Assembly: GCA_008632985.1 (NCBI GenBank)
Contig: QPGO01000106.1
Span: forward strand, 1 to 64,000
Source of the DNA: Psammoneis japonica
Taxonomy: Eukaryota
Length of the DNA stretch: 64,000 nt
Reading direction: 5' to 3'
Shown here: piece after piece, positions 7,207 through 64,000 of the stretch
Layout of the letters: each line of letters opens with the position of its first letter
How positions within the stretch are numbered: the first letter of the stretch is position 1
Translations under genes and position numbers: made by a program
Notes under the pieces: generated by a model
Told to the model about the DNA's origin: nothing
What the model saw: the letters and a program-made list of their open reading frames with translations, nothing else
Database searches by the model: none

Positions 7207-7918
7207 GGTGTCACAGCCTGTCTGTCAGAGAGCGGTGTTGCAGAGAAGTTCGCAAGCAAGCAGCAACGATGAACGTTCAGAAATGCAAATGATCTGTGAT
7301 CTTCTGTTGACAGTTGATTGACGCTTTTGTGAAAGGATGAAAAACTGCGTGTGCGTGGACTCCACGCAAGATAAAATTTCAAACTTGGGATCCACATGTC
7401 ATTTGTTGAGGAAGATTCAAAGATGCTCAGGAAATCTTTCTTCAACAAACAAGACTTGCGAACAGCAATGATCTCCAATGCAATTTCAAAACTTGATCAA
7501 GCATGCCCGTCGGACTTCCAAATTCGGCCCGTCATGTGTGTGTGCAACGCGGCCATCAGTGGTTGGTGATTGCACGCAGTGGATGCCAAAAAGGGTGGTT
7601 GTTTCTAGGTCGACACCTTTGCCATGGAGAGGTGATGAGAGGTTGGATGCGGGTGTGTTGGCGAAAACCCATTTTGGTTTCCAAAGCAAAAACCCATTTT
7701 GGTTTCCAAACATGGCCAACCACTGCATTGTGACAGGCTGAACTTCCGTCCATGGGCATTGCCAAACCTTCGTGGAAAATTCACATTGCTCCCGTTGCCA
7801 GTCATGGGGTTGGTGGCTGTCATGGATGCACAGTGTGCATGTGAGTGAGCGTGGTTTGAGTGACTGGAAGTTGGGGATTTCAAGTGGGAATTGTTGCATC
7901 TGCATGAGTTGCCAATCT

Positions 7919-8178
7919 GGCCTGTCCCAGCTCCAGGTGCTCCGCGCGGGTTCGATTCCCATCATTTGGAAATTTGTGCATTTAGCGCAATTAACTTTTT
8001 CCAAATCCGTTTTTTGCCAAATCGAAGGGCAAGTGTGCACTTTGCATGCATTTTCGGGTGTACACTCACCTTTCGATTTTCGAAACGATCAAAATTGAAG
8101 GAGTTAATTGCGCTAAACTGCGCAGAAAATCGGCCTCTCGCGTGATGAAAAGCAGAGCACCTGGAGCTGGAACAGGCC
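7919..8178. mobile_element. 260-bp MITE with 24-bp TIRs and a 4-bp TSD (ATCT)
   Basis: TIR GGCCTGTCCCAGCTCCAGGTGCTC (7919-7942) vs GAGCACCTGGAGCTGGAACAGGCC (8155-8178), 1 mismatch. ATCT at 7915-7918 and 8179-8182. Inner inverted repeat TTTAGCGCAATTAACT/AGTTAATTGCGCTAAA. Absent from duplicate copy B (empty site ~9455). Confidence 0.9.
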
Positions 8179-8488
8179 ATCTGTCATTTTGCACGTCATC
8201 GGGAAGAATGTGGCACAGCATGAGATTTGCTTTTTTCTGTTTCAGAATGCCATCGGTCATGTCAGGCTTGCGCTCTCATGTTCAGAAGAAAGCAAAATGA
8301 GCCACACTCAACAGGTGCATGACATGTTGCGGATCCTCACAGCACAACAGCAAGCCTTGCAGCAAGTCGCTCCTCTCTCCAATCTCAACCCTCACATGGA
8401 AGACTGTCAGTGATGCCCTCATCCTGCATGTCAGGCAAAACTTGCAGGACACATTGCTCTGTGAGATGTGCAAGGAGGTCACCGTGTG

Positions 8489-8962
8489 TTGTCCACTCTC
8501 TCGAACTGCTCCCCGGCGCTGTTCTCCACAATCAAAACACAATTCTTCTCCTGCATCAATGTCTCGTTTGGCACAAAAGCACATTTTGCCATCTCCAAAC
8601 CATTGCTTTTTCCACACTGCACATTTGCATCTATTTTGGAATTCATCCATCGTGCCAACCCGGATTTGTCAGCGTCCATGCCATCATGGTGCACTGGTTC
8701 GCCCCGCTGCACTGCCACAGACATTTCAGCAACATGACGACCTCAACCGTTGGGATGCCGTTCAAAGCACTTGTTTTCATCAAGTTGCTCACCCTTGTGC
8801 TTGAACAGACAGGATCCAGATTCTGTGTTGCAAAGTGCAAAAACAGCCCACCATTCCCGCTCCGTCAATTTTAGATTCTTGAGTTGCAAATTCGGACTGG
8901 GGAAATGGATCTCGAATCTCATTAAATGACATGCAATGTGAGACAAGAGCAATGCCAACAAG
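8489..8962 (-). pseudogene. Hypermutated partial copy of the SET-domain gene
   Basis: KMCFCAKRDIDAGEELCFDCGEQ and SCLFKHKGEQLDENKCFERHPNG align to KMYFYAKRDIDAGEELCFDYGEQ and SYLFEYKGERLDENEYFQRYPDG; frameshifted. Confidence 0.92.
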
Positions 8963-9745
8963 CAAAAAACACAAGAAATGGAGGCCAAGATTTTTTTCAT
9001 TTCTCTCTGTGGCCATGACATGTGCAGAGTGGCTTCAGGGTGCAGTGTTGAGGTTTTAGATGCTGAATTTGGCATTCCATTGAACTGTGCCACCTTGTGA
9101 TGTGAGTGAATTGCGGGGCCATGAGAAAATTATCCAGTGTTCAGTGGATGCCAAAAAGGGTGGTTGTTTCCAAGTCAACACCTTTGCCATGGAGAGGTGC
9201 TGAGGTTGGATGCGGGTGTGTTGGCGAAAAAACCCATTTTGGTTTCCAAACACGGCCAACCGCTGCATTGCGACAGGTTGAATTTCCGTCCATGGGCATT
9301 ACCAAACCCGCGTGGAACATTCACGTCGCTCCCCGTTGCTCGTCATGGGGTTGGTGGCCGTCATGGATGCGCAGTCTGTATATAAGTAAGCGTGGTTTGA
9401 GTGACTGGAAGTTGGGGATTTCAAGTAGGAATTGTTGTATCTGTATTAGTCGTTATACTGTCATTTTGCGTGTTATCGGGAAGAATGCAGCACGGTATGA
9501 GATTCGCCTTTTCTGTTTCAGAATGCCGTCGGTTAGGCTTACGCTCTCATGTTCAGAAGAAAGCAAAAGCACCACTCGACACTCGACGTGTCGCGGATCC
9601 TTACAACACAACAGCAAGCCTTACGAGTCCTCTCTCCGCTCTCGACCCTCGCATGGAATACTATCAGTGATACTCTTGTCCTGTATGTCGGGTGAAACTT
9701 ACAGGACACACTGCTCTGTAAGATATGTGAGGAGGTTACCATGCG

Positions 9746-10447
9746 TTATTCACTCTCTCGAACCGCTCCCCAATACTGTTCTCCATAATCAAAACACAAT
9801 TCTTCTCCTGCATCAATATCTCGTTTGGCATAAAAGTACATTTTGCCGTCTCCAAACCGTTGTTTTTTCCACACTACATTTGCATCTAGTTTGGAATTCA
9901 TCCACCGTGCCAATCCCGATTTCCTAGCGTCCATGCCATCAATATACACTGGTTCGCCCCACGGTACTGCTGCCGGTATTTCAGCAACATAACGACCTTG
10001 ACCGTCGGGATAACGTTGAAAGTACTCGTTTTCATCAAGTCGTTCGCCCTTGTACTCGAACAGATAGGATCCAGAGTCAATGTTGCAAAGCGCGAACAGT
10101 CCCATGCCCGCTCCGTCAATTATAGATTCTTGAATTGCAAATTCGGATTCGGGCAATGGATCTCGATTCTCATTAAAAGACATGCTATGTAAAACAAGAG
10201 CAGTGCCAACAAGAGTGGTAGAACTCAAAATGAAAAGTGGATCAAACATGTCGGTGGCAATTCCAACCGTCAGCGCGGCAACCGCCATTCCTCCACCCGC
10301 AATCAATCCGGTTTGTTCCAAACGACGAGATGCAGATACTTCGAGTTGAAGAGGCTTCTTCTTACTGCCATCGTGTAGATGCTGTGGTGGTGGTAGGGCC
10401 AACAGACAAAGGATGCCGCTAGTAGCAGCAGCACAGAACGGCGCCAT
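9746..10447 (-). CDS. SET-domain protein lysine methyltransferase-like, with N-terminal hydrophobic segments
   Basis: GAGMGLFA, ARWMNS and ELCFDYG SET motifs; ATG at 10447. Confidence 0.88.
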   Translation of the reverse strand: MAPFCAAATSGILCLLALPPPQHLHDGSKKKPLQLEVSASRRLEQTGLIAGGGMAVAALTVGIATDMFDPLFILSSTTLVGTALVLHSMSFNENRDPLPESEFAIQESIIDGAGMGLFALCNIDSGSYLFEYKGERLDENEYFQRYPDGQGRYVAEIPAAVPWGEPVYIDGMDARKSGLARWMNSKLDANVVWKKQRFGDGKMYFYAKRDIDAGEELCFDYGEQYWGAVRESE

Positions 10448-11528
10448 TGTCGACTTCACCGTATCATACAGTACCGCCGCCCGGTATGATGTGTGACTAA
10501 CGCGTATTCCACTTTTCGAAATTATGCTTACCTACGTGTACGAAGACACCATTTTCTCAACATTTAAAGAAAAAAGCTTTTTTCCGATTTCAATTGACCT
10601 GGTAATTCAATAATGAGTAAGAAAAATGCAAAATAGCAAGAAAGTGTCGTTAGTTGCTTGCGTTCGAGGTGAATGTCATCATTTTTCGCGGCAGCAAGTT
10701 GTGAGCTCCACAAATCATACACTTACTGTTGTCTACCATCAAATAACGCACACCATAATCCATATTATCAATGAAATGGACCATCCGTTGCTTGGCTTGA
10801 TGCAAAAGACAGTGTATGACACGCAACAGCCCCATTTCGATTGATGCAGAAATGTCGGCCGCAGACAAATGGTTCAAATGTCGACATGAAACTAAGAGCC
10901 GGTGTTCCTCGTCAGGGCTTTTAACATGGTCGAAATGCTCCCTATATAAGTGTATGAAACGAGCGTATCAAATAAAAAGAACGAGTCAGTGACACGAAAG
11001 CGCAATACGATTGTATCGCGACAGCACACGAAAAAGAGCAGCGGATGGTGATGCAATTACAAAATCCATTTTTGACCTTTCGATTGAGCAATTACCTTCA
11101 AACAAGCGATGAAAATAGTTTCTATATGATGGTAGAAACTATTCTAAAGCACTGATGTTGTTGAAAGGGTTTGGCAATAGCATGAAATGCCGTTCCGATT
11201 CTCATGGTGAGTGGCGTTCGGAGGGTGTGTGCGCATACGTGACTGAATGAGTCCCGCCTAACTTCATGCAGCCGCCGCGCGCTCGCCTCAGTCCTTATGA
11301 TACAGTAATTTTAATTTTAAGATATATTACTGTATTTATAAAATCATTCACTTCCAACGGACACCTAGTTTCCTAACAAGACTGGATCAAATGGTCGCGG
11401 TTAGCATAGAATAGAGTCAGTCGTGTATGCGTACTGCGGTTTTGCATTACACGGTATTTTGGGTTAGGTTTTCGTTTTTGGAGATGCCGCTGCTGCGAGT
11501 TACCTAATATATCGTCATCTCTCTCGTT

Positions 11529-14189: not shown

Positions 14190-16170
14190 ATGCGATTAAG
14201 GTTTGTGAGTTCTCGCAGTCTTCCACAGGTCAAGAGTGTCATTGGCGTCTTCAACTTTGCTCATTCGGAATGTCAACTGGCTGGCGCGTCGAGAGGGTGG
14301 AGGGAGAAAGAAGAGAGAAAGCGAAGAGTGCTTTTGTGCTGGCCGAGAGATCCTGTCTTTTCAAGCATCGCCAGGTGGGAACAAAAAACCATTGATGTCT
14401 GTCTTTCAAGTTTCCAGCAGAGAGCACAAAAATTGACAACAAAATTCAAGAACATGGGGATTGCCGGAAACCACTTTGAAGGGTCCATTGTCATTGCGCT
14501 CATCAACATCATCTGCAACAATCTTGAGCTCATCCTGCAGTGCTTTGCAGTTGGCACGTTCCTCACCCGATTTCCAAAAATTGGCAAATTCACTCATGAG
14601 CAATGGTGTGTGAACAGAGGTCAAGGCCATGAGAACAGAAATGCCAACACAAAGGATTGCTTGTCGGCACGAGTGGATTTGGGGTGGTGTCAAATTGCAC
14701 CATGATGTGGAGTTTGAATGTGTTTTGTGACAGAACCCACATGTTTGTTTCCCAATGTGACATGGTGGAAAAATGCTTGGCAACTGAGAGCATTGGGCAA
14801 ATCATCAGCATGCATGTGCTGTTTGAGTGGCGATGAAAACTGGGCCAATTCTCTGTCCTCGGTCATGCCACTGCCACCAAGAACCTTGTCGTGACTCCAG
14901 CCATCTTCAAATGAGTGAAGCTTTCCATTTTGAATCAACTCATTAACTTTGAGTCCCTTGCTCTTGACAAGTTCTGGCAATTTTTTCCATTTTGGTTCTT
15001 TTTGGCGCATGCTTGCCACCGCTGCTTTGAAAGAATCTCACACAAAGCTGGTGGTGGTGTGATGCACAATGCTGGCTCAATTGTTGATGAGCACCATGCA
15101 CATGACAAAGGGTTGCAGCACTCAATGAATGGCATGGTCCTCTTGCAGAGCACAGTGCTGGCTTGCAATGTTTGAGCCGAAACCCAAAAGTGATGTTGAA
15201 ACAAATGATCTGCCGCTGTCATGAGACAAAAGAGTGAGGATCTCCCCATGCAAACTTGGCATGATGTGTTCCCACTGGCTTCCATCACTGGGAGTGACCA
15301 AACTGTCAGATGTGCCTGTCACGAGAACCTTTCCTTTTGGTCCTCATTGAAGTGGGCACATGCTCCGCACCTGCCAAAGCCTTTTTGTGCCTCAAAATCC
15401 TTCACAAAGAGCGTGTCCACTTCAAAGACCTTTCTTTTCTGATTTGCTCCAGCGGTGGAAAAATGAACAATGGCCAACAGAAAAAGATCCACTTTTTTGA
15501 CAAGACAGTGGAGAGCTTCCACACCTCTGCTCTCAAGTGACACAGAAAGCATGTGTGTTGTTCAGAAAAAAATGTTGAACCCTCACACTGCCGCTGATGC
15601 TGAAAAAAAGAGGGTTGAGAAAAAACACATTGTGATGCACAGCCATGGTGCAAGTTGCCAAGAGCTGGAGTTTGTGTGACATCTTGGGAGGCACCAGCTT
15701 GAAATGAGTTTTTTGCACCCCACTTCAAACAAGCCCACTTTTCTGGGCCTGAGCACTTTGACCCATGATGCCGGGTTGCCCTGGCCCTCAACAGGTTCAT
15801 GAAGAAGCAAAGTTGCCACTTCTGGCAGAGCTGGTGTGCTGAGCACCAGCACAATGTTCTCAGGTACAGTGCACAGAATGTGCCCCAGCTCTGCTGGGTG
15901 GGATGCCTCATGCATTGTGGCACTGTGTGGTGCTGACATCGCGTGGGCCTCACAACATCAAGCACACGTGTTTCTGCACACAACTTTGGCTGCATTTTTT
16001 GCACTGTTTTACCGCACAGCCCAGTTGTCATGCTGTCCACTTGACAACTTTTAATTTTTCCACAAAGCAGCTCTCAAATGTGCCTGTGGCATGATGCTCC
16101 AGCCCCAGTTGTTGCTCCACAGAGCATTGGCCTGCCCACGCAAACTCTGCCCGCAGCTCTCACTCTGGTT
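14190..16170. other. TpA- and CpG-depleted degenerate island, origin unrecognised
   Basis: Only a handful of TA sites in ~2 kb; overlapping Cys/His-rich, near Tyr-free ORFs in all frames. Confidence 0.8.
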
Positions 16171-16416
16171 GATAAGTGAAATACAACTTTTGATTATGAA
16201 AATTGATGGGCATTTCCTATTACAGTATTATTTTTTCCCGCCAAGCAGTTTTGGATCTTGCGTGATGCGGCATAACTCGCGACCAACCTGAGCTGTTCTC
16301 GTCGTCGCGCCACATTCCTCATTCATTCAACTCACGTGTGCTGCATCTGTCTCATTAAAATATAAGTTTACACCTTTATTGGCATTCACTTGATCTGACT
16401 TGCAACAAACATATTC

Positions 16417-21810: not shown

Positions 21811-22589
21811 GATTGCGTGATTTATGGCAGAGGAGAGAGCTTTTCAGAGAACAAGGTCTTTCTTTGAAATATGATTACTTCGGCAAAGATACGCTTTCAT
21901 CAGTTGGTTCCATGTTCCATCGGCCATCGGCAGCATCTTCCCGTCAAACCAAAACCTGATTCCTCCTCGTACGATACGTACGTAGATTTCTACGAAGAAA
22001 GTTCCGCGAAAAAATGAGGTTGAGCGTTCAGGATTGCGCATCCCCTGCGCGAAACGAACTCACTTGGCTGCCGTCGAAAAAATTGAAGTTTCGCGCGTCA
22101 GCGCGAAACTTTCGCGGCGGCGAAAGATTCCTGATGCCGCCAGCGGCGGCAATGTGCTTACATTCAAGTTTGGATCTAAGAAACTCGCGAGAGTTCGGCC
22201 TTGCATCCGAAGGAATCTTCAACTCGACCATGAACTTTTCACGAAAATGAGCGGTGAGCGGTGACGCCTCACCCACACTGACACCTTCATCGAGTTGACG
22301 ACTTTATCGAGCAGACGACATGTTCATCAATGCGAGATGGAGCTGCAGCATGTTGACCAACAACTGGGTTGTTCCAAGGTCAAACACATCACTGTGATGA
22401 TGAGTGCTGTGTCACGGGACTTTGAAGAGGTGGTGTCATCAAGTGTCATTGTGGCTGAAAGCAGCAACAAGCCTTCGGTTGCTGTTGCCTCAGTTTCAAG
22501 ACCCACTGGGAAGAAAAAGCAGCGGTTGTTGCAGAAGAAAAAGAAGAAACCAGCTTTTTCTTCTGAAGCATCCGATCCATTCACAGCAG

Positions 22590-22925
22590 GCCAGAACAGC
22601 ATGAGCTTCTGCATCCGTGGCAGGCCACGCTCACAGCAACGTGACAGGGCTGGTTGGAATGTGACCAGCAGGTGCAACCCATCAAAAAAGCTGCAGGCAG
22701 AGTTTGCCAAACTCGTGCACAACCTTTGTGCTTGCCACGAAGTGTCTCTGCCCTGCTTTTGCGCCAATGCAAGTCTGTTGGTGACTGCATCTTTTTTGTT
22801 TCCTCCACCAAAACGAGGCAGAGGAAACATTTTTAGAGTTGCAGACATTGACAACCTTTGCAAGTTTCTGCTTGATTCACTCAACAAGCTTGTGTGTGAT
22901 GATGATTGTAAAGTCGTGGGGTGCA
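22590..22925 (+). pseudogene. rusA: RusA-family Holliday junction resolvase remnant
   Basis: FCIRGRPRSQQR..CNPS..FLFPPPK..ADIDNLCKFLLDSLNKLVCDDDCKVV matches the RusA DxDNxxKxxxDxL..YxDDxQV pattern with Tyr->Cys. Confidence 0.75.
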
Positions 22926-23459
22926 CGAGAGTTTGTGTGGAATCAGCAAAAGAACAGCAATTGCTGTTGTGCACCTCTGCACAATGTGTCATTCAGTGCT
23001 TGTGCCACATTTCTTCCCTTTCTTTGTTCGATGAGGATTGTGGTGGAGAGGGGGGGGTGCACGACAGCTTGCGCAGCAGCAGAATTAAAACAACAGTGAC
23101 TGGAAGCACCACAATGAGAGGGGATGCACGAGAGTTGGTGTGCAAGCAGAACAATGACCATGAGGATTGTGGTGGTGAGGGACACACAAGAGTTCCTGCA
23201 ATTGAAAGAACAAAACATGCTGCGCCTGAAGCACATCCACCCAATGCACCATTCAATGCGCAACAGCTCACCATCATTCAGCACTTGTGCAGCATTTCTT
23301 CACTTGCACACTGGCGACACTGCGTTCTTCATTCTTGAGAAGAACAAAGTCAAGACACCTGTTCCTCCCTCTGCTGACATCTCCACAGGACTCCTCTTCC
23401 TGCCTTTGTGGCGGATGCACCCGTTGGCTTCACAACACTTGTTGCACCTGCCACCAACA

Positions 23460-24940
23460 CCAGTCATTGTCTTCCACAGGCTGGAGCTCGTCTTTTTGTT
23501 GAGTTCACCCATTTTGGTGAATGCTGCATGCTCCATTTCACATGCAACTGCAGCCAGGACACTGTCAAAATCTTCGATTGCCTCCCATTCAGATGCTTTG
23601 TCTTGAGCAACAGTCTTTGCTCATCAGCAAGAACAGACTCCACAAGCTCCACAGCCCCCCAACAGAAATGTGTGTCTTTCTGAGGCACCGAATCAGGCAT
23701 GGCATCATGCAGCTTGCGCCCAGCAAACAGCTTGTTTTTGTCGACCAATTGAACAATGAGCTCCTTTGTGGTGATCCCTTTGCTTGTGGCTGTCAAATCC
23801 AAATTTTGTCGCCATTGCATTGATGTCAATGCTTTCTTGTCGTGCTGCTGCTTGGCCTCACACAGTGTCTCATTGACAGATTCAATGAATCTCAGAAGTT
23901 CTTGCGGGATTCCGGGATTGCATCCCTTCTGTCGGGTGTTGTGTCGGCAGTGGCCGTGGTTTCAACAGTTTCAATCATGTCAGCTCTGGCATTGTGAGTG
24001 AATTCCTGTTTTGCAATGGGTTCTTCTGTGTTGTTGTTTGTTTCTGGCTCCTCCGCTGCCCGCCCACGGAACGCCGCCTTCAGCGCAGCAACAATGGATG
24101 ACAAGAACGTGGTTGTTGTCAACATCTTCAGTCCAGACACTTCAGATCCAATGAGATTTTGCTTCTGCTGCAGCTCCAAATTCAACTGCACAAGCTTTTG
24201 GATGACACGTGACTGCTTGTTGATTGCATCTGTCAAAGTTGTGGCCGCTGCATCTGGCACCCGACTGTTTTCCAATTCGTGGGCCTTGTCAATGATGCCC
24301 ACCAATGTGACCAATTTGCGGTGTGCCTCCCCTGGAGACATTGCCAACCTGGCTTTCTCAACAGAGGACACCAATTTGCACACCAATTGATTCCCAGGGC
24401 CAAACTCCTCGTGCACAACAGGGCACTTCATTGCAGTTGAAATAAAGAAACCAACACAAGGCACAGACATGACACAAGCCGGTCCATTTCTTCTGCTGTG
24501 ACATGGCTCACAAGAGCATCCAGACTTGCTGGGTGCACCATGTCTCATGGATGCTCAAATCCCACAAGCGCATTGGCCGGTGCCATTCCAGCCAAAGGAT
24601 TCATTCTGGTGTGTGGCTCACTGTTGTTGCCAGCTGAGAAGCCACCAGCAACTCCTCTGGTGTGACATCTGGATGAATTGAAAGCTCAGTGTTGGAGCCA
24701 ACGTGAATGCTCCAAGACAAATTGAACACAAGCATCTGGGCGTCTGAGTTTTTCTTTGTTGATTTTGCAAGTTGCGCAGCTGCAGCTGCATCAGAAATCT
24801 GCCAAAGATCCGGGAACACTGCCTTGTTTGCCAGCTTTGTTTTCTCATCCAAGCTGTCACACCGGCACAAGCCATCTTCCACAGCAAAGAACGCTCTGGT
24901 GACAGCAATGCTTGCCATGCTTGGTGTTTCACATCTCACT
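23460..24940 (-). mobile_element. Degenerate coding remnant, possibly tyrosine-recombinase (Crypton-like) element-derived
   Basis: SWSIHVGSNTELSIHPDV resembles the YR S-x-R-x-G..T..H motif after CGC->CAC decay; weak. Confidence 0.25.
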
Positions 24941-26630: not shown

Positions 26631-26639
26631 AGAGTCTGA

Positions 26640-47239: not shown

Positions 47240-50200
47240 GGTGTCGTTCAAAACAAATAGACGGATCGATCCGACGCAAACGCTCGAATTGTGAGGGCAA
47301 ACCACAATGGGTGCTGGTGGACATCGATTTTGGATGACCATTGGACATTAAGTAAACGGCATTGCAGGCATTTCCCTCTCTAGTCATTCTAAGGGCTTAT
47401 ATAAAGAACAGGCAAAAGAAGCGTTGAACACAGGATACGTCATAGATCTCAAAGTCTTTGTGTGTGGGAGCCGACAGGAACAAGGTGCAAGGGCTGTTTT
47501 AATTTTTTTATGCCCCAGGGAGTCATCGAAACCAGGGGTCATGGGACTATGAAAAATAAAGCGAACGAAATGAAATAAATAAAGTGGACGCACGGATTTC
47601 CAGCCCATCCGCCCAAAGTCAATCGCTGTCCCATTGCGCAGTGCACCTTCTGGCAGACTGCGGGTCAGCCTGCACCGGCCTCTGTCTGCTCTTTAGCTGG
47701 ATGCAATGCTTGGCAATGGAATGGCAGCACTGCACAAACCAGATCTGTTTTGTTTTTTTCAACAACACACGTGATGAGCGAGTTGTGAATCATCTGTCGA
47801 TCAATTTCTGCTTTGTGTCAGTCAGTCTGTCCTTGTGGAATCTTCCCGCCACGTTGGATCACATTGTTGGAGCTCACGGCTCAACAACAGTCATGTGCTG
47901 CAAATGTCACAAGGCCCAACTCAGGTCTTGTTGATGCAGAATTGATTGTTGAGAACTTGGCAACTCCGCCGATGTGCCAAACAGAGAAGAGCGTGGATTT
48001 CCACCCTGTGAGCTGCCCAGCCGCACTCGCCAGATTTTGGCCCAGACAGCTCACATTTTCAGTCAGTTGTGTTTCTGCAAAAAGCTTTTGACCAAATGCC
48101 ACATTGCTGCCAGATGGTGAAGAGTTGCTGCTTGCCCTTTGGTCCATCTTGGAGTGGACACCCCCAAGTGGCGCGCTGGAAGCAAGACTGCCTGCGAAGC
48201 GCGCGTGTGCGCGCTGGTTGGCGAGCCCAGCTGGGGTGACTTGGCACATTCTGCACTTCCATTTGGGAATGCCCAGGCTGCAGCTGCCACCTCCGGCTCT
48301 GATGCCATCAGAGCACCGCCAAGACCATGCTCCGTGCTTGTTTGTTTGTTGGCGTGTTCCAGCCCCAGGTGACACACAAAATGACAATCGACTTTGAACA
48401 CAAATTGTGTGCACATGAGTGCATGGAGCATTTTCACATGAAACACTCAAGCGGATTGGCTTTTGCAGGTGTCTGGAGCATGAACAATTGTGAAGAATTA
48501 AATGGTTTTTTGTGGGGCATTGAAGTCCTCATGGGATGTGTGTCACAAACTTCCTCAGTGGACTCAATGCTGATCGTACGTCACTGGTCTTTGTGCTGAG
48601 ATTTCTTTGCAGGTAGAAAACATGCCAAGAAGCATCGTAGAAAGACACACTTGGTTGACATCCAAATGACGGCAACAATTTTGCCGAAAATCATCCACTG
48701 TGTTGCGACTCGTTTGGTGCAATGAAAAACATTGATGGCACAATGACAATGATTTTGCAACACTCACACGAGTCTTGTCAGTGTTGCAAAACAATGGAAT
48801 TTGAACAAGTCTGTGCTTTTGGTGGTGAAAAACCGTTCGCAAGTCAGAGACCGTGCAAAAATTGCGCAAATGTTGTTTTTGTGCATGATTTGGGTCACGT
48901 GCGGCTGGAACACGTCTGTTGGTTGTCAGATCGTTGGATCTCCAACAGCATGTGCCACCATCTCATGTGCTGCCTCACTCCATGGACCTCCTGAAACCCA
49001 AGACAGCTCTCTGAGCTCACACTCTCTGGTGGAGAATGTCCCAGATGATTGGTTGGCACCAACAGCTTTTTGAGCGACCTGGATCATCCCATGGCAGATG
49101 ACCCTGATCCCTTCATGGACCTGCCTCCTCAGTTTAGTTTTGCCATGTTTTTGAACAAATTTCCCCTGGATTGCCACCTTTGCCCTGTTTTTCTACAGAA
49201 AGGGTGAATTCCTGGGGAATCACCATGAGTTGCCCTTTGTCACATGTGTGCTGAACACACGAACAAAAAATTTGAAAAAATCTAATTTTAAGTGCCATCG
49301 CACCTTTGCCCAGCAACACCGGTGCCGGCTGGCCCACACTTCCAGCGCACCCTGCAAGGGTTGCGGCAGAAGATCGTGTGGTCAGTTGGTCAATGCGCTG
49401 CTTTGCAGCAATGCGCACCAGAGACAAAAGGTCAAGGAAAAATTGCACCAGAATGAGATCATTGCTTTCTTTTGGAGAGGCTTTAATGCACCCAAACCAC
49501 CACAGCAAAGGACAGTCAAGTTAAGCAGAGAATTCAAAGTCAGCGCAAACTCTGAGAGAAAATCTTTGCCTCTGAGGGAGAATCGTGTCTTCAACAAAGA
49601 CTGACTGAGTTTCACAATTGCACGGACCAGAACAACAGTGTGCAGTTCACTGCTTGGAACAGTGATCTTGGCAGGCCAGCAAGCAGAAAAGGGGATGTTC
49701 TCGGGGGACTTGCAAGGATGAAACAGGAAGTCTTGGTGATGTGACGAGAAGGTTGTCAGAAGAAACATCATTCACACACAGAATTGATGCTGAATCTTGT
49801 GCAGAAAAGCCGATCTGCACAGCAAATGGACAGTCGTCAGGTGATGCCAATGGTTTGTCCACGCAAACACTTGCAGGTGCCACAACAGGGACAGCACTTT
49901 CACCACATGAGGTGAAGAACTTGAGCAGCCAGCAGGAGAAAAAAAATTGTTGGGGGCTTTTGGGTGTGGAAGGAAGTTGATCACATCGGAGATGCAATGA
50001 CTGTTGGTGTGCATTTCTGAAGCGCGCAGAATTTGCACTGGATTCTGTGCAGAAATTGCACCAAATCCACAAAAAATTGCCAAGTGAGGCAACAAGCATG
50101 CAAACCACAAGGTTTCAACGTCAGTCATTTTCCACTGAAAACCATTGCACATCATGGAGATAAAAGGGTGTGCCAATGGCAGAAGGGGCCAAAAGGTTGA

Positions 50201-51277
50201 CGGGTGACCCAGCGAAATGCCGTCTGAAAAGGGCGACATTGGTGCGAGCGCACGTGCAGAAACACACGTGGGGGCTGCCAGAGTGGGTGCTCACACAGAA
50301 AAGTTTAAAAAAATGATGTGCGTTGGCAATTCCCCATGCTTCCCTCTTGCACATTTCTGTGTGTTCCACATGACGGCAGGCACGGAACCACACATCAGAT
50401 GTGCAAAACAACAATCAACAATCGACCGACTGCAACAAAAATGGGCAAAACACCATGGCGCATTCGCGCCCCATTTGTGATGGCTTTTGTCAAGCAATGA
50501 TGACACCAGTCAACCTCATGAACAACATTGTGATCTACAGCACAAAGGAGACAAAATGAAACAGAAGTGTGACAGATGATGTTGAGCAGAAAACCAGTGC
50601 ATTGATCGTTGCACTTGTTCTTTTGTCGTGTGGTCACAAATGCAAGCCATGTGGCGTTCATTGTAAAGTCCAAGGGGCAAAAGTGGAGCAGCACGTGGCC
50701 AACAAAAATGTGCTGGATTGAACAGTCATGCTCATTCTTCCAATTGATGCATTTTGTGTGCAGAATGAAGTGAGTCATTTGGAATCACTTTGTTGTCGTG
50801 AAGCTGCAAATGCAAACCACCAGGCGTCTAGAACAAAGGTCAAGGCAACAGTGGAACCTCACAAGGCTGACAAAAACATGGCGGATTGAGTGGTCATGAT
50901 CATTCTTTCCTTTGACCCAACTCATGCGCAGAACACAGTGCATCATGTGTTCCTTCTTGTGTCGCTTGGTCACAAATGCAAACCACAAGGGCTCCAGAGC
51001 AAAGGACAAGGCAAAAACAGAACCTTGCACAAGCAACATTGACGTGCTTTGTGTTGATGTGTCGATGCATTGCACAGCGCCCACACAGTCATGAGGACAA
51101 AAGCACACCCGCCTGACCACAGTCACCATGCATTGCCTGCATTCCATTCGTATTTTTGTTCCCCTCCCCTGAGCCCTTTCAGGCATTCCTTCCTGCAAAA
51201 TTGCCCTCATTTCCCGGGATTCCCCCAAAAGGGCAAGGTGACTCCCCCTTGCCCTGGCCATTTTGGGGAATCCCCAA

Positions 51278-52200
51278 ATGGGTGAAACCAAACTGAGCCT
51301 GCCTCAAGATGAGCCTCCACCTCCTCCCCAGGATGCAAAGGACCCTTCTCCTCCAGAAGAGAACAATGATGACAAACCCCCATCCCTGTTGCATCAGGAT
51401 GAATCTGATGATGAGTCCCCTGCACCCAAGAAACTGTGGATCAGAGGTTGTTGGATCCAATGAGTGTGTGGCTTTGACAGGAGGCAAGCCCAAGGCCATC
51501 TTTGCCCAACCAGTGCTGCTCCCATCATGTTGGTGTGGCTCAGAAGAGCAAGGCAGGTCACACCATGGGTCTCTCCACCTGCTTCGCCAGGCAAGGAGAC
51601 CTCCCAGCCTTTGAGCGAAATGTCATGAAGCACATGGAGGACTGTGGTGTGGATCCATTGCTTGCCTTCCCAACCCCAAGCATCCCATGAGACTGTGCAA
51701 CAGCTGTGCTGTCACAGGTCACTTGCAAGGCAAGCACCATGACCTTGATCACCCCCAAGCTTTGCAAATGTGACCCTGCAATCAGGCCAATGACAGAGAT
51801 GCAGCTGCTTTCTGAAGAAGTTGTTGGACATGGATCTCATCAGCAAGCTGGATTTTGAGGTTGAAAACACCAACTCATTCCCTTGAGACTGGATGGCATT
51901 CATCATTGCCCTCCACAGTCCATCCATTGAACATTTCAACAAGCACAAGAAGGAGATCGAGCAACTCAGTGCACCCAAGCACCCCGGCCAGGACTTGTTT
52001 GAGCTCTCAAAGGCCTGCAAGACCAACACAAAGGAGCCAGACTGGCCCCAAATGCCAACAACTGGTGATTGACCAGCTGCAGCAGACAAGCCGGAGGACA
52101 TCCTTGCACATGGTCAAACCATTGTCCATGCATTCCATGATGTCTCAGGAACAGACAAAGTTTGATCTGTTGCCAGAACATTGTTTTGGTCAATGCGTGT
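51278..52200 (+). mobile_element. Ty1/copia (CoDi-like) gag remnant
   Basis: FERNVMKHMEDCGVDPLLAFP; WMAFIIAL.SPSIEHF..K..I..L..PKHPGQD (YPGQ->HPGQ); from recall of diatom copia gag. Confidence 0.5.
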
Positions 52201-52895
52201 TGCATTTCAGTGCAGTGGGCATGCATCTGGGATTTTTCAAAAAATGATGGCAATGCACAAACACCCACCCTCACTCCCACAGATCCATCCTTGAGCTGAG
52301 CCACAAATTTGGCATTTCCCCACACTTTTTCTTGCTGTTTTGTGCTTCATCATGATTTCAGCCTCCTGACAGAAGTGGGGGCATGTTTGTGCTCTGCAGC
52401 ATTTGGGTCACTTTTGCATGTGTGACCTCATGTCAGGCAAGAAGCTTGAGCCTCCATCCTTTGCTTTCATTGTCAGTGCCATGCTGGCATTGATGAAAGG
52501 ATGCAGCAACTGTGAGCTTTCTCTGGCCCTTTTGAAGCAATCACGTGAGTGAAAGAGAAGCCAAAGAAAGATGGAAATGGCGCCATTTTGATTTGATGCG
52601 TTGTCATTTGTCATCTGGTGTCAACACATTGCAAGTGCCATGCACTCTGTTTTCCATGCAGTGTGGTGGAAATGTGCGTGGGGGGCTGGCACAGTTTCTG
52701 TCCGCACCAGGTGATCTCCAGACTGCCCACTTGAGCACTTGAGGACACCTGTGCCAAAGCATCAACAGAGTTGCAACTGGGCTGGCAGGTGGAGTTTGAG
52801 GTCACAAACCTGCAATTGGCAGAATTGCATTTCACCACACAACACACAGCACAGCACATGCAAACTGCAACATGCGTTGAGATGTGCGTGCCACA

Positions 52896-53803
52896 GACTT
52901 GCTCCAGACTCAGGTGCGCTCACGCATGAAAAAATGACCCTTTTCGCATGAAACGCGTGGCCCACACTTGCGGCGCCATTTTCGACAGCAAAAACATGAC
53001 AATTTTCAAATGTGTTGTTGTGGGCACACACAGAAAGGTCTTGTGCGTGCACCCATGCATTCGAAACTGTGGATGGACTCAGTTGTCAGTCGCTAAATTG
53101 TGCCGTGAGTTGAGAGCTCTGTTTTCCGAGGAGCAATTTGTGGATGTCTCAATGTGTGAAGAAACGTGTAAAATGTCATTCTTGTGTGTAAATTGACCCT
53201 TTAACATGACACAATCAATCTTTGGTTAAAATGCGCGATGCAACTGTCGTTCAACAGATCGAATGAAACATGCGTTGATTGACAAGTTTCTGATGATGTG
53301 AGAAGAAGGGCAGCTCAGCCCACGCAGTGGCATCGACTTCGGACCATTTTTCACTGTTTAAAAGGCACAAACGATTGACGCACTTCAATCAGTTGAACAC
53401 CTTGAGGAAATGCACATGGCGATGGCAAAGAAATGGTCCTCAGAGGCAAATTGTGAGTGAGTTGAGGCTCAATTGTTGTTGCTGACAGATTTGGCATTGT
53501 TGTGCCATGCTGCAGCCTGCAACAAGCATTTTCACTGTTGTTGTTGATGCGTCAGACTACATCAAATGCGGAGGTCCTCGTCATGACACTGAATTTTCCA
53601 TGAGGCTGAAAAAAGTGGGCCGTCATGGTCACTGAAAGCCATGGCCAGTTTGGCTGTTTGTTTGTTCGAGTTCATTCTGTTCATTTTGCTTGCAAGCAAT
53701 TAACGGTCAATGTGATGAAACATGTGCAATGTTGAATAAGCATTGAATGTCATTTTTTCTGCGAAAAGGGGCATGTGCGCACCACCTGAGTCTGGAACAA
53801 GTC
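52896..53803. repeat. Diverged inverted-repeat pair, probable old TIR element
   Basis: GACTTGCTCCAGACTCAGGTG (52896) vs CACCTGAGTCTGGAACAAGTC (53783-53803); CCCTTTTCGCA / TGCGAAAAGGG inside. Confidence 0.55.
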
Positions 53804-56800
53804 CACACATGTGTGTCCACACATCAACCAAAATTGTGCTCCAATCGTGCGTCAATCATGGGTTCGCACGAAGGGCAGATCGATCACACAGAAGTGGTCG
53901 GATGTCGAGAATCGCAAATGCAATCATGCGATGATGTTGACATCTTGTGTGTCAACATCAATCACATCTGGACAATCTGTTGTCATGATCATGTTCTCCG
54001 AAAGGCCTTTTGTCTGTGGGAGCAGTGCAAAAGGCTCAGGCCATTGAGAGCCCGTTCGGAGAAACCCAAAATGATTGCGCAGAAACAATTCTCATGATTT
54101 TCACTTTTCAAACTTCATTCTGCTTTTGTTTGCACTCATTCTTTGAGCACAGTGCAAAACAACTCCACTCTTTCATCAAGCACAAGAAGCTGCAAGAACA
54201 GCCACCAGGTCAGTTGAGTCAATGTCCCCATCAGTGTCCAAATCAAAGATGGCACAGCATGGATTCTTGCAAAGCACAATGGGACAGACTCCATTTGAAC
54301 ACTTTCCTGTCCAGCACTTTTGAAAGTCAGATGGGCGGAGACATGTCCATCACCATTCATGTCCTCAGGGGTGCTGTCACACTCAAAACTGTTGGAAATT
54401 TGAGTCAGTTCCCACCCTCCTTCTCCAGCTCCTTGTCAGTTGGATCTGTCATGAGAGTTGCAGCATTGGCCACACCAAAATTGAGAGCTTTGTCCATTGC
54501 AACCATGGTGCACGTTCTGCAGCTTCCACAGTTGCGCAAACCACCCTTTTCTGCTGGAACAGCTTCACTTTTGCTGCCGGGAAAGAAGACATGCCAGACC
54601 GTCTGTCAGTGGCAGTGATGTTTTTTTTTTTCTGTTCAAAAATCTTGACACCAAAAAGGACAGCAGCAAAGTCCAGAAACAAGGTGTCCCTTGAGCAATT
54701 TGCAACAGCACCCAATCTGTTTGAGCTTTCTAAGCTCCCGATTGAATGACACACATGTTGCATGACTGATCTTTGAACACAAACATAAAAAAAAACAATC
54801 AGGGACAGTTGAACAAAACAGTTTTTTTTTAACAACTGCCAAGTTTTCAATGCCAAACATTCACTTTCCACTCACCCCAACTGGCACCAGCAACAAACTG
54901 AATTGAGTCCTTGCGACTGAACTGAGCCCTCCTCGTCAGACCCATGTGTTGAGTTGATCACTGCTCAGAGCTTGAGAGAGGCTGCCGATGAAGCCTCCTC
55001 TGTCATGTTTGGTGTGTGACAAGCTGATGGCGCAGGTGAATTGTCAGAGGTCCACAAAATTGAGTTTCCTGTTCAAACAGTTTTCCCTCGTGGTGTGCTC
55101 GTGCACACACACACAAGGAGCGCACTCACACTCAGGGGAAAAATTGTGGTCATTTTCTCAGGGTGGCCAGCAAAATGACTTGCTGCAATTTTCAGTCAGC
55201 TCTCCAAAATCTGACAGCCTTGAGGGTGTCAATGCAAACCAGCCCTGTTTCCAGACATTCTCAATGATGCACATGTCCAGTGTCCAGTGCCCCAGCTGCA
55301 AGCAAGCAAAGGAGGAGCCAGCCATCAATTGTGTGGAGCTGTTCAAGCAAAAAAATTTGCACACTCCTGTGGTGTGATTTTTTTCATTTTCAGGCATTTT
55401 TGGCTTTTGCGGTGGTGTGAAAGCCACCAACTGCACACTTGTGGCTCATTTGAGCCTCAAAACCACTTGCAATCATTGGTGATTTTTTTTCAAAAAGACA
55501 TGCATGGAATCTTCAACAAAAAAAACCTTGGCCTTTCTCACAACACAATGTTTTGAAACAAGGTCATTTGTGTCGGCAGGCAGATGAGTTTTCAAGCTGC
55601 TCTTGCTCACTTGGTTGGCCACTTCATTGTTTTTTCTCCAGCACTGCTGCACACAGTGGATTGTTGGCCAGACTCTGTGCTGCTTTTGGCAAGCACCAAA
55701 GCTTTGCACAGAACCACTGCTGTGCAACAAAAAGAGCAGCCACGCCTTTCTCATAAGAAGCAAGGCAGTGCACAAGGCAGCACAAGAGCAGCTTCTCCAA
55801 GAATGGGGAAAACATGCCGGTCCAAGTTGTGGGCAAGGTTTGCACCAAACAGCTGCACCCAGAGACCAGCACTGTGTGACAAGTGCAATGCCAACTTGTT
55901 TGAGAGGAAAAAGCAGACCAGCTGATGCTTCTTGTCAACAACAAGATGTTGAGTGCATTGACAGCATCTGTTTGTGTGGCACATGTGCCAATTTGGAGCA
56001 CACCAGTGCAGCAAATTTTGCCACATTGGTGCGATGTTGTTGCTTCAACTTGGACACGCTGAAAATTCTGCACATCCAAATTTGCCAATGGCGGTGATGA
56101 TTGTGGTGATCATGTTGAATGCAACAGTGATGCTTGCACAGACTGTGTTTGTGTTGTTCTTTCAAATGCATGGCACAAAGGGAGAGCAACCAGATTTTGT
56201 GTCTTGGATGAGCGCTGGTGAGATGTGACAACAGTCAGTGCAAAACCACACTAGAGGCTGCCAGTGCAGCTTTGCCAAAAGACAGTTTTAAATGAGTGTT
56301 TTTGGATCAAAAGCAACAAACAAAACAATGTTTCCTTCAGCTTTCACATGGAGTTTTGAAAATGAAGAATCTCATGGAAGCTTTTGCATGCACACATCAA
56401 GTTTGCATCCTGCATTCGTTGCATGTTTTCTGCTTCTTTGAGTGCAATGGGCATTTCTGAAATTGTTCTCTGACACTGGCTCTAACTGACACATTGGCAG
56501 TTTAAAAGGGCACGTCCCCGTTGCCACAAGAGTGTTGTTTTTGCAGACTCTCTCGGCACCATACTTTCAACGTCCTCGTCCCGTTTTCTGCTGCTCCATG
56601 GTACGATTGCAGAGAAAGCAACTCTCAGCAAAAAAAATTGAGAACACAGCGGCAAAGCAACAGCAATGCCAAAAGTCTACTAAAAATCGTCTCATTCAAA
56701 AAGTATGTTTTACGATACGAAAATGTGTATCCAAACTACCTATATATTCTTTTCTGCAGCGTATTCACCGGCTGCTGCAGGCTCTCGTTGGGTTGCCTCC

Positions 56801-60431: not shown

Positions 60432-62879
60432 GTTATATTCTTTAGCTAGTATGTACTCGATAATTCTCGTGTGTTGTTGTTGTTGTTGTTGCGAAGCGAG
60501 AAAGGGAAGAAAAATGAGGCTGACATTCATCGGAGGGTGGCGCACGCATGGGTTGGTTTTTCGCGCCCAAAAATCAGAAACGGAATCTGGAATCTCCATT
60601 CACAGACATTGGAGAGAGCACATCATGGTCCATCGTTCATTCTTGTCCGAAACTGTACGAGCAGTGAGGCGTTAGAGCACCTGAGAGCGCTTTCTCCTTG
60701 ATGAATGTGTAACTCACATTAACCACATCATTCCTGTGTTCCCTTTGCGCATTGCAACAGGGTTTGTTCTTTTGCCTGCTGCTCTTCTTTGTCAGAGAGC
60801 TGCGCTGCGCCCCGTGCAGTGTGTGGCAAGAATGAGAGCAGCGTGCAAGGTGGTGCCAGCTCTTGTTGTTGTGTGCCACAAGAAACATGTTGAAATCTTG
60901 CTTTTTTGCTTTTTTTAGGGAGATGAAATGAAAACGTTCACAGCCATGTTGCGTCCCCTGGTGCTTGCTCCCTGTTCTGACTGTGTGTGTTCTTCTTGAT
61001 TGGCCACAGCCCAAAACCACTCTGCACCACTTTGTGCTCCAAGGCAGTTCTTTCATTGTGACTTTTGACAACTCCTTTTGGAGCCACAAAAGAATGTTGT
61101 CTTGTGTGTTGCAGCCACAGCTGTTGTGCTTTTTTTGTTGGTCGTGTGCGCAACATGTTGCAGGCACTTGAGGTGCCTCCCGAGCTGGGTGTCTCAACAA
61201 GCAAGAAGCGGAGCTCACAAATGTCCACTGGTCAGTTTTTGCCAACTGCTTGCAGCCCTCAAATTTGCTTTGATGAGGTGGACAACAAACAAGAGCCTTG
61301 TCATCTCAGAGATGCCCTGACAAAAAATCAAGTTGGCAGCTGCTGCCATGCTTCTGGGGCTGGGCAGCATTTTACAAACAAATTGAGAGCACCAAGGTTG
61401 TGGGGAAAAATGAGTGAAAAAACACCAAAAATCCATTGCAGCTGCCCGCACGGAGTGGCGGGCCATGTTGTTGCAGGCCAGAGCACAAAAAGCATGTTCT
61501 TGCACCTCATTGGAGCAGCTGCATTTTTCATCTGTGGCAATGAGGTGCTGTGCCTGCACTGCTGGAGAGATGTTCTTGTGACTGGTCAACAACCAGCTGG
61601 AGCAGCAGCACCCACTCAAAATTTGTTGCACTTGAGCTGGTGCACAGCGCTGCACTTGGTGCACACATCTTGATGCTCGTTCTTCTTGGGCAACTTGTTC
61701 CCGCCGCAGCTTGCCAGCAGCAGCAGTTTGCAACAGCGGCACTTTGGCTGTGCAGCTCACACTTTTCACCTCCTTGCACAGTCGCCATCTTGCTTTGAGC
61801 TGCGCAGCTTTGCAAGGTGCACCAGGAAGAACAGCTGCTGCTGTTAAAGCAAGGGCTCTGCCCCAGGGACCTCTCCATGGCAAAGCATTTTGTTTTTTGG
61901 GAAACACGACAGGAGAGAAACTGTGCCACACATTGGAGAGGGCACAACATCAACCAAGAGGCCACGTGGTTGGGAAATCTGCACCTGGTGCAATTGGTGT
62001 TGGGCACAGGCAGAATCCCACAGGTTGTTGCAGTCAGCACTTCATTGTGAATTGCTGATGACTCCATTTGACAAAACATTCAAAATGGCCCTTTGTGTCT
62101 TGTCATTCCATTGCCTGGCCATGCGCGCACCTGCCACGCAAAGACTTTGAGGATTTTATGATGCCTTCTTTTTGCTGCAGCACAACAACGCTTCATGTTT
62201 GTGCCCTTTGCACAAGCCCTTGCAATGACTGAAGGCGCGGTTCCAATTGCAACATTGTCACACCACTGCAGCCGCATCTCTGCTGCAGCAGATGGAAAGC
62301 AGTCGCACAGCACAGCACAGCACAGCAGTTGGTTGTGAGTGCCTGCCGCAGCCCCGTTTGTTGTCCAACGGTCATCCAAAAATCGACATCCACCAACACC
62401 CATCACCTCACAATTTCGAATTTGAGTCAGATCGAACTATCCATTTGTTTTGGTTTGAACGAACAATGAAGCTCTCCTCTTTCAAGACTCTGTTTGACGG
62501 GCTCCAGTCCTGGGCGGGACTTTTTGTGACATTGGGCCCGCAGAATTCTACGTGCGAGCTCCGCATTGCGGGAATTTAACCAATGGATGTTTTTGTCTTC
62601 AACATCAAACAAACGACCAAGTTTGTGGTGCAATTGTGACCATTGCCACTTGGTGTTTTTGCAAACACGCCTGCCCTGCGCCATTCTTAAGACATTTGCG
62701 AATGGCGCAGAAGAAAAAAATGTCAAAAGTTGTTGGACGGATCGCTCAACAAGTGTGCCACAAAATGATGCAAAATTTCACAAAAGTCATGTGCCTTTCT
62801 GCGTGCGCAACATGCGGTGCGATCCAAAAAACTGTCGATGTTGCAGTTCAGCAGCACGAGGTCCCACCCAGAGCTGGAA

Positions 62880-63510
62880 CGCGTCATTCACCTTGCTCAG
62901 TGCGGTTGCTTTCGCACAGGCCAATGGTGAGCAGACTTCTTTTGATCCCTTGTGCGCGTTCCCAACCCATGGCTGCGGCAGCCACGGTGACTTGTGATGA
63001 CCCATCATGTGGCTCATGCACTTGTGTGGATTCTTTCTTGCATGCCATGGAGATCCTGATGAGTGCTCCAGTGGTCCAAGATGCCCCATTGCCCGCGGCA
63101 ACTCCTGCAGGCGCGGCAGCTCCTGCAGAGGCAGTGGAAGCTCCTCCGGAGGCCGTGGAATGTCAGACGGCAGGCACCAAAGTCATGAGCGCTGGTGGCG
63201 GCAGCCCAGAAGGGATTGAGGAAGGAGCAGGAAAAACAAAGGGTGCTCGGGACAAGCCAGCCAAAAAGGCGGAAAAGAAGGGCGGCAAAGAGGAGAGAAA
63301 AAAGAAGAAGGCCGTCAAGAAAACCATCAAGAAGGCAGTCAAGAAGGCTGTCGCAAAGGTTGCCAAAGTGGCACCCACCACAACAGATGCTGCTGCCAAG
63401 AGGACAGAATGAAAGGAGCATCGCAAAGAACGCAGGAAGTGCAAAAGGTTGGGCTGCACCAAAGCAAGCACCGACGAGGCTTGCATTGCATGCAATCTCA
63501 AATGCTTGAA
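62880..63510 (+). pseudogene. Hypermutated paralogue of the Lys-rich gene at 46487-47239
   Basis: CDDPS..CVDSFLHA..PAEAVEAP..KKAVKK..TDAAA then CGA->TGA stop, followed by CKRLGCTKASTDEACIACNLKC. Confidence 0.85.
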
Positions 63511-64000
63511 CCGCCAGCTGTCTGTGTTCACAGAGAACAGCGTCTCTAAAAGCACAAAGCTGTGAAAATCTTGTCACAATGAAGTGTGATGAGTGGACTC
63601 ACTCCTGCACCAGCTGGAGCATCAACTCCAGCCTTTCCTTTGTAACTCGAGATGTTCAAGACATGCAGAGGAAAACTGCGGTCTCTCACACAGTTCAGCT
63701 GGACAATTTCAATGATTGCTGCGAGGCAGGCTCGAATTGCCAGTTCGCTGCGGTGACTGCACTCCTTCGAGTTGAGATCAATTGTGTTCTCTTCTCTCGA
63801 AACTGGGGCTGCGGCAGTGGGCTCGACTGCACTTGCTGCTGGGAGGAGCTGAGGCAGCATTTTGTTTGCTGCCCTGTTCAGTTGCACATGTCATCCCTGC
63901 TGACGCTGCGTGCCCAATGGAAACAACTTTGCACGTTGGGAACAACATTGCATTGTGCTCTTCTGTGGCGAACTCTCCACACAAACAAATCGCACGGTGC

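Follow-up and report, generated by a model that had tools for sequence, protein, structure and literature searches.

What has removed the dinucleotide TpA (TA) from long blocks of a diatom chromosome, and what the bases around the few surviving sites can tell about the agent, are the questions raised by the first 64 kb of contig C105 (GenBank QPGO01000106.1) of Psammoneis japonica, whose genome assembly comprises 91.4 Mb in 597 contigs. Across this 64-kb stretch, referred to here as the window, the observed-to-expected ratio (o/e) of TA swings between ~0.6 and 0.03-0.08 at near-constant GC. A two-state hidden Markov model divides it into six TA-poor islands (37,160 bp with 155 TA) and six outside blocks (26,840 bp with 1,162 TA), a density of ~4 TA per kb in islands versus 43 outside. 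GC is 0.48-0.52 in islands and 0.46-0.48 outside, while the o/e of CG falls to 0.30-0.71 in islands from 0.87-1.06 outside. The islands, which are sharply bounded and carry miniature inverted-repeat transposable elements (MITEs) and broken gene copies, make up 58% of the window, and the mosaic goes on over the next 200 kb of the contig, where 87,887 bp (44%) are island. In these blocks TA changes to TG or CA on either strand, under a six-base product rule and a separate rule of strand choice, with a bimodal load per repeat copy and with CpG decay as a separate process. Our best reading, to which we assign a probability of roughly 0.55, is that a chromatin-targeted adenine deaminase acts at locally opened TA steps. 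In public sequencing run X1, one contig at ordinary depth spans positions 1-6835 and reproduces island 1 in one piece, so the island is not an assembly artefact. It differs from the window by 11 substitutions, 9 on CG steps, 2 on TA steps and none elsewhere, so both processes have been at work after the two versions diverged; the run is possibly the source sample, and independence of the strain is not assured.

The initial annotation of this DNA had claimed that the residual TA are mostly of the YTAR type, that CTAC/GTAG is often spared as well, and that TA in RTA and TAY contexts is almost erased; all 11 sites that it cited are where it placed them. With survival defined as the island TA rate divided by the outside TA rate in each context, the tetramers of the window range from TTAA (0.61), CTAA/TTAG (0.30), CTAG (0.20), GTAA (0.11) and CTAC/GTAG (0.076) down to ATAA (0.056), GTAC (0.054), ATAG (0.029), and ATAC and ATAT (0.008 each). 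A depletion uniform across contexts is rejected (chi2 181, 9 degrees of freedom, df), also after normalisation to the pool of TA, CA, TG and CG, and the context dependence is repeated in the next 200 kb (chi2 284). Between positions 7900 and 63800, YTAR accounts for 67 of 123 TA in islands (54%) and for 163 of 1,116 outside (15%; p 1e-21), an undoubted enrichment in which "mostly" means barely over half; survival there is 0.35 for YTAR, 0.071 for contexts favourable on one side only and 0.016 for RTAY, against 0.36, 0.07 and 0.02 when all six islands are taken together. The near-erasure of RTA and TAY holds where both flanks are unfavourable, but GTAA keeps 0.11 and ATAA 0.06. As a tetramer CTAC/GTAG is not spared, since its survival lies below the island mean of ~0.096, and the sparing belongs solely to TCTAC/GTAGA, with 12 sites in islands against 45 outside (survival 0.19), compared with 6 against 126 (0.034) for other CTAC; the larger pooled set described below gives 0.179 and 0.034. 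Likewise, the four examples cited at 7981-7995 and 8103-8117 are present but not independent, being exact reverse complements in the two inner arms of one inverted-repeat element. The further claim, that the flank preference argues for an enzyme-like motif rather than GC-biased drift, is upheld in that drift is excluded, because GC is similar in and out of the islands and CG declines together with TA, and in that the paired copies and the MITE series support a mutator specific to TpA and dependent on its flanks. The rule is not, however, a simple tetramer motif: it is six bases wide, its two sides multiply, and strand choice follows a separate rule in favour of TAC. Nor is a flank preference by itself proof of an enzyme motif, as the two-sided symmetric part may reflect the energy of DNA opening.

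The width of the rule was derived from a pooled set consisting of the contig and of sequence flanking MITE loci (143 of 149 sequences remained once overlaps had been removed, and MITE family 1 was masked), which holds 417,226 bp of islands with 1,830 TA and 171,431 bp outside with 7,090 TA. In this set TTTAAA and CTTAAA survive almost fully (0.93 and 0.96), and 22 of 136 hexamers are without a survivor. When each flank pair is normalised to its own pool of TA, CA, TG and CG, a product of left and right half-sites fits the 136 hexamers with a deviance of 114-143 (~120 df), against 201-669 for a sum in which the A of each strand is an independent target governed by the bases 3' to it, and 2,137 for uniform loss; on the 105 hexamers without TA or CG in their flanks, the product gives 87 and the sum 181. 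The additive two-strand model had fitted the ten tetramers of the window (deviance 3.8, 6 df), but it came under strain in the 200 kb that follow (18, 6 df) and failed on the hexamers whichever exposure shape was used and also when a floor was added. The half-site weights, named by the two bases that follow TA, rise from AA 0.37, GA 0.73, AG 1.6, AC 1.8, AT 2.3 and CG 2.4, through GC 4.1, GT 4.1, CA 4.8 and GG 5.5, to TG 9.2, CC 9.7, TT 16, TC 19 and CT 20, while the value of 3.2 for TA is unreliable owing to overlap. Half-sites TAAA and TAGA protect, and TACT, TATC and TATT expose; TCTAC owes its sparing to the cold half-site TAGA on its left. An exposure shape of k ~1.3 fits best and is compatible with uneven exposure or with a balance with newly made TA.

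The direction of the change was read from duplicated sequences with one copy inside and one outside an island (Table 1). The window and the following 200 kb contain 73 repeat pairs, 24 of which link island with outside; 21 were used, the other 3 reusing the same island stretch. Among 325 aligned TA in these 21 pairs, 8% are unchanged, 140 have become TG and 107 CA, and 37% of 500 CG are unchanged; TpA is thus lost and CA and TG are gained in islands. The SET-domain region is found in only two copies in the genome, and its live copy is untouched although it lies next to its decayed duplicate. The duplication shared with island 6 extends beyond the window, to contig position 65054, which corresponds to 44955 in the outside copy. 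The large broken gene of island 1, which has no Pfam match, bears on whether a repeat partner is required. Its region has single-copy depth in run X1, and its nearest paralogues, intact-looking frames of 1,660 and 1,986 amino acids on contigs C8 and C16, share 46-52% protein identity with it and ~67% identity in DNA patches and are TA-normal (40 and 33 per kb). This gene is TA-erased without a close paralogue, so a near-identical repeat in the present-day genome would not seem to be needed, although a partner may have been lost. The breaks in its frame near 2650 and 6381 coincide with one-base differences in run X1 and may be assembly errors or strain differences. In the 262-bp element inserted into the decayed SET copy, other copies in run X1 mostly have G at the A positions 7984 and 7993, and the very high summed depth suggests that there are hundreds of copies.

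An independent view of the same process is given by two MITE families, whose copies were found with a degenerate terminal pattern blind to TA and CG state. For family 1 the pattern had 421 matches, and 90 loci from the first 100 listed yielded 83 new full-length copies, of which 56 belong to a close subfamily, leaving out listed copies already fetched by similarity; for family 2 it had 222 matches, and 90 loci yielded 88 copies, 85 full-length and 73 close. One real TA-rich copy per family served as reference; TA sites that were polymorphic or peculiar to the reference were discarded (4 of 31 and 2 of 32). Sets found by similarity search are biased to the state of the query and were left out of the rate fits, but they did enter the allele counts of private changes and the 3'-context counts of off-target changes. 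Overall the MITE sites gave 583 changes to TG and 641 to CA, with both outcomes at most sites and few TA>CG doubles. Weights derived from the genome predict these fates (the Spearman coefficient is 0.75 with the product and 0.65 with the sum; likelihood score 637 for the product, 719-787 for the sum and 856 for a flat rate). In leave-one-site-out tests on 57 TA sites of heavily hit copies, a symmetric site rate combined with a strand rule scores 1,275-1,298, which a free two-sided model barely improves (1,264-1,290), against 1,442-1,455 for the own-strand 3' bases only and 1,601 for a flat rate. The clearest case of the two-sided rule is TTTACT, which is kept in 24 of 29 heavy copies despite TACT being the hottest half-site. 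More generally, the share of TAC sites still TA is 69% after TT, 52% after TC and 49% after GT, and 0-18% after the 10 other dinucleotides present. Which strand is hit follows a different rule: relative to A before A, an A is chosen 6.7-fold more often before C, 1.9-fold before T and 1.06-fold before G, as seen in CTAC (235 TG versus 41 CA, 14 sites) and GTAA (15 TG versus 107 CA, 8 sites). The old family-1 copy in island 6 shows the outcome within the window, since 21 of its 27 scored TA have become TG or CA, 3 have changed otherwise, and the 3 kept (CTTAAG, ATTAAA and CGTAGA) are all in low-weight contexts. TA-rich MITE copies (62-73 TA per kb) also occur inside erased islands, at 108203-108582, 139137-139573 and 219692-220074 of the contig.

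The load per copy is bimodal. There are 72 light copies (75/807 and 92/1,135 cells hit) and 57 heavy ones (453/625 and 604/832), so that conversion is 8-9% in the former and 73% in the latter, and only two copies lie between 30% and 50%. Private changes other than A>G are equally frequent in both classes (heavy 47/13,133, light 55/16,668; p 0.69). The light copies are not simply those outside islands, as in family 1 both flanks are TA-poor for 21 of 31 light copies and for 22 of 25 heavy ones, and no copy is TA-rich on both sides. The TpA process therefore looks switch-like, on or off per locus, as in lines of Bigelowiella natans (see below). Specificity is high: 73% of TA sites in heavy copies are converted as against ~0.7% of other A sites, a preference of ~100-fold for a 5' T, and 16 heavy copies hold 13-24 TA hits and zero other private changes. 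Off-target A>G at non-TA sites is nevertheless 3.8-fold up in heavy copies (56/8,377 versus 19/10,629; p 1e-7) and amounts to 12.4 per 1,000 before C, 15.1 before T, 3.9 before A and 5.7 before G, a preference for a 3' pyrimidine that light copies do not show. First hits in light copies gather just inside one terminal repeat (family 1 sites 30, 33 and 52; family 2 site 363), where a position effect, such as a cruciform or a transposase-bound end, is possible on top of the hexamer rule.

Loss of CG accompanies loss of TA but obeys no common flank rule. CG survival is 0.50-0.65 in 14 of the 16 3' dinucleotides, compared with 0.02-0.39 for TA, and a shared rule was dismissed on a rank correlation of -0.12. 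Such flank-blind loss is what would be expected of spontaneous deamination of 5-methylcytosine (5mC), and finding it in the same DNA makes it more likely that TA is lost by a selective process of its own. In diatom transposons, which are methylated by DNMT5 (PMC9998398), 5mCpG deamination would leave the same TG and CA products in the same blocks, but it is flank-blind and slower than the loss of TA: in heavy copies 15-18% of CG are converted, TA hits outnumber CG hits ~9 to 1, and rare CG conversions number 133 in the 57 heavy copies against 14 in the 72 light ones (~12-fold per copy).

The preferred reading of these data is a locally switched-on mutator that would convert T:A to C:G only at TpA, in silenced blocks made of transposons and dead gene copies and predicted to be CpG-methylated. 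Heterochromatin or 5mC would mark the block. The duplex would then open, or a base flip, at TA, a step that would be hindered by runs of purines on one strand or the other (TAAA, TAGA and their complements), since these would be expected from general DNA structure to resist opening; such hindrance could explain the symmetric product rule. A deaminase of the TadA/ADAT type favouring TAC would turn A into inosine, and replication would fix G. Doubles to CG would be rare because the first hit destroys the TA and shields the other strand, and the survivors would comprise cold hexamers and some recent TA created by ordinary C>T. A>G with a 5' T and a 3' C is what TadA/ADAT2 deaminases and adenine base editors prefer, TAC being the favoured motif of TadA-derived editors (PMC8065034, PMC9126838), while a review table gives 5'ACG for TadA/ADAT2 and 5'UAG for ADAR (PMC10661471); TAG is not favoured here. 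Those enzymes differ in that their natural substrate is tRNA, their 5' selectivity is weaker and, in contrast to the two-sided rule seen here, they require DNA that is single-stranded or looped. The genome has 9 matches to the deaminase family PF00383, including ADAT2-like and TadA-like genes in TA-normal DNA; the TadA-like gene on contig C38 has HAE and PCxxC in frame, and the ADAT2-like gene on C26 has HAE and an exon end within PCxxC. Two near-identical dCMP deaminase-like loci, on contigs C41 and C317, are possibly uncollapsed haplotypes in the assembly.

Several points weigh against a deaminase. The ADAT2-like and TadA-like genes are the tRNA editors expected in any eukaryote, and nothing ties them to the islands; moreover, sequence cannot separate A>G from T>C on the opposite strand. 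Amphioxus ADAT2, the sole ADAT2 for which DNA editing is reported, favours hairpin loops and the motif GAA rather than TAC (PMC10354150), which speaks against plain ADAT2, and TadA-derived editors separate TA from GA only ~3-fold (PMC8065034), compared with ~100-fold here. A deaminase moving along exposed single strands should leave strand-coordinated runs, and no such runs were seen per copy (p 0.09 and 0.98), with a weak neighbour covariance (p 0.04 in both families); repeated rounds would mask such bursts. Identical 8-mers can have site rates as much as ~30-fold apart (sites 30 and 318 of family 1), so that position or inheritance adds much to the rates, on a basis of 57 sites only. Finally, the neutral clock may consist of copying errors at transposition, in which case the light copies would be later arrivals and their equal age insecure. 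A bolder proposal, which we make tentatively and with the odds somewhat against it, is that a native adenine deaminase edits double-stranded, chromatin-marked DNA as a genome defence, a "reverse" repeat-induced point mutation (RIP) that is switched per locus, needs TA to open easily on both sides and takes the A of TAC, and that is shared between, or evolved twice in, stramenopiles and Rhizaria.

The alternative that survives best, although we consider it unlikely, makes T the target, with a TET/JBP-type dioxygenase oxidising T at TpA in silenced DNA to 5-hydroxymethyluracil (5hmU) and 5-formyluracil, which mispair with G or are mis-repaired; the rule would then read G[T]A. All sequence data fit either strand. 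This reading needs a further step, because 5hmU pairs with A, and TC/GA is not depleted in the window (o/e 1.05 and 1.03). Dinoflagellate TET/JBP enzymes are described as making transposon-enriched 5hmU, with a TA and TC preference in early work (PMC11572971), and phage T-dioxygenases as trinucleotide-selective, one preferring NTG and then NTA (PMC13229309), but 5hmU in Breviolum is described as lacking a motif (PMC11071213). The TET/JBP profile PF12851 had 0 matches in a genome search in which the controls were also silent.

It seems quite unlikely that an error-prone polymerase of the Pol eta type miscopies TA in repair patches begun at deaminated 5mC in methylated blocks. The excess of CG conversions in heavy copies would suit it, as would a duplex-symmetric rule with little strand coordination, and Pol eta is reported to mutate WA hotspots in mismatch-repair patches (PMC7884765). 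The AA hotspot that WA predicts is absent, however, since AA>AG (26/3,991, 0.65%) is no higher than the changes at CA (17/2,300) or GA (13/2,086), with TA at 73%; changes at TA other than to TG, CA or CG number only 32 against 1,162 transitions, and the ~9 to 1 excess of TA over CG hits is likewise against it. A prior adenine mark, such as N6-methyladenine (6mA) at TpA, that is deaminated or miscopied much as 5mCpG decays would lend its methyltransferase's flank rule to the pattern and could yield the palindromic, duplex-level rule seen here. This looks highly improbable, because rates so far above CpG decay are hard to reach passively and known eukaryotic 6mA lies mainly at ApT in active genes. 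That no special mutator acted, the pattern coming from GC-biased conversion, selection, assembly artefact or RIP read backwards with the TA-rich copies as the mutated ones, is hardly tenable: the outside DNA is merely a proxy for the ancestral state, but GC is flat and CG lost, the TA-rich SET copy is the open frame, run X1 contigs reproduce the island with differences on CG and TA steps only, and the hypothesis is already refuted, unless copies are mis-assembled, by the MITE copies in which 13-24 TA conversions are the sole private changes and in which a given site may have gone either way.

Among known systems, the adenine deamination that we favour most resembles the process reported in B. 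natans by Mettrop et al. (bioRxiv 10.64898/2026.01.13.699255), who describe A:T>G:C hypermutation at TpA only, measured directly at a 1000-fold de novo rate and active in a subset of lines, in integrated DNA of nucleocytoplasmic large DNA viruses and virophages, with ADAT2 as the proposed agent. In both cases the change is confined to TpA, strikes both strands, is local to silent or foreign blocks and can affect single-copy DNA, and the on/off behaviour of B. natans may have an indirect counterpart here in the bimodal load at equal neutral divergence. The diatom differs in that MITEs and host gene copies are hit, together with CpG decay, and in extent, as TpA in B. natans is given as falling to ~0.45 o/e in few clusters; B. 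natans is a rhizarian and the diatom a stramenopile. The main text of the preprint has no flank analysis, and "flanking", "context", "trinucleotide" and "diatom" occur 0 times in it. RIP of ascomycetes, which depends on RID/DNMT4, is similar in its dinucleotide-directed, near-saturating transitions in transposons and duplicated genes and in its all-or-little load per copy. It differs in that RIP is C:G>T:A at CpA/TpG and makes TpA, a defining substitution that we did not find, whereas here TpA is removed at constant GC, also from a block that has no close repeat partner. Diatoms are reported to be able to carry a DNMT4 related to RID (PMC9998398). The genome has 27 matches to the cytosine methyltransferase family PF00145; three such genes, on contigs C301 and C297 (L281, L282 and L283), lie in TA-erased DNA (4.5-6.5 TA per kb), two with internal stops, and are probably mobile or dead copies.

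A literature search for a diatom report or a flank rule, with subscription journals outside its reach, returned the B. natans preprint alone. The TpA process is thus on record in a single preprint, to which the present analysis adds the multiplicative two-sided rule and the bimodality at equal divergence. The hexamer and strand-choice fingerprint makes the identity of the enzyme directly testable, as any candidate must give ~100-fold TA selectivity, cold TAAA and TAGA, hot TACT, TATC and TATT, and the TAC strand bias; it also allows the B. natans mutations to be tested for a common origin. The rewriting of about half of a diatom contig has consequences for the dating of transposons, for gene prediction (through false open frames) and for how genome defence is viewed beyond fungi and animals, and a native adenine editor of duplex DNA, if true, would be useful for base editing.

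Table 1. Coordinates of TA-poor islands, paired copies and inserted elements in the window.
Feature	Position	Strand	Remarks
TA-poor island 1	1082..9378		43 TA, 5.2 per kb; CG o/e 0.71
TA-poor island 2	14198..16172		4 TA; CG o/e 0.30
TA-poor island 3	21992..32978		46 TA; CG o/e 0.49; contains cited sites 22831, 25757, 26876, 28232, 31470
TA-poor island 4	37908..41367		16 TA; CG o/e 0.62
TA-poor island 5	47581..56482		32 TA; CG o/e 0.36; contains cited sites 48613, 49192, 50534, 50827
TA-poor island 6	60462..64000		14 TA; CG o/e 0.51; extends to contig position 65188
Large broken gene in island 1	1227..7224	-	two in-frame stops; 3' end (1-1081) outside island
Mutated copy of 9142-9450	7577..7909		1 TA vs 9
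Inserted 262-bp inverted-repeat element	7918..8179		28-nt terminal arms; inner arms 7981-8040 and 8058-8117; inside decayed SET copy
Mutated copy of 9458-10213	8181..8962		3 TA vs 37, 23 CG vs 44
Open frame with SET domain (PF00856, E 3e-17)	9746..10531	-	unmutated partner of island copy
RusA-like Holliday junction resolvase domain (PF05866, E 1e-6)	22265-23338	+	in TA-erased island
Mutated inverted copy of 46033-47347	62362..63992		longest piece 6 TA vs 66
Old copy of MITE family 1	62495..62885	-	~390 bp, terminal inverted repeats, 4-bp target duplication

A Pfam scan of the window covered 30 open frames and gave a family for 8, mostly outside the islands. The TA-normal blocks at 43032-43841, 33143-34312, 36667-37935 and 59124-60599 encode a diatom pyrenoid shell protein (PF25192, E 6e-82), which marks the DNA as diatom, two sulfotransferases and a protein of the YidC/Oxa1 family. 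The one annotated frame inside an island, the RusA-like frame, is probably cargo of a transposon or virus. Almost no TAA or TAG stops remain in the islands (for example, 5 in 1,975 bp on both strands), and spurious open frames are inflated there for this reason. Contigs of a second run, X2, which is registered as DNA, cover 9430-10518 and span GT..AG gaps at 12004-12102 and 16899-16991; they do not cover the islands within 1-20000, and this lack of cover was not used as evidence. A look-up of RNA records listed none for the SET gene. At 10606-11340 the depth of run X1 is raised and A>G or T>C differences fall on the TA steps at 10725, 10735, 10756, 10763 and 11123, so that this region represents one or more TA-rich repeats outside the islands of which other copies are partly converted.

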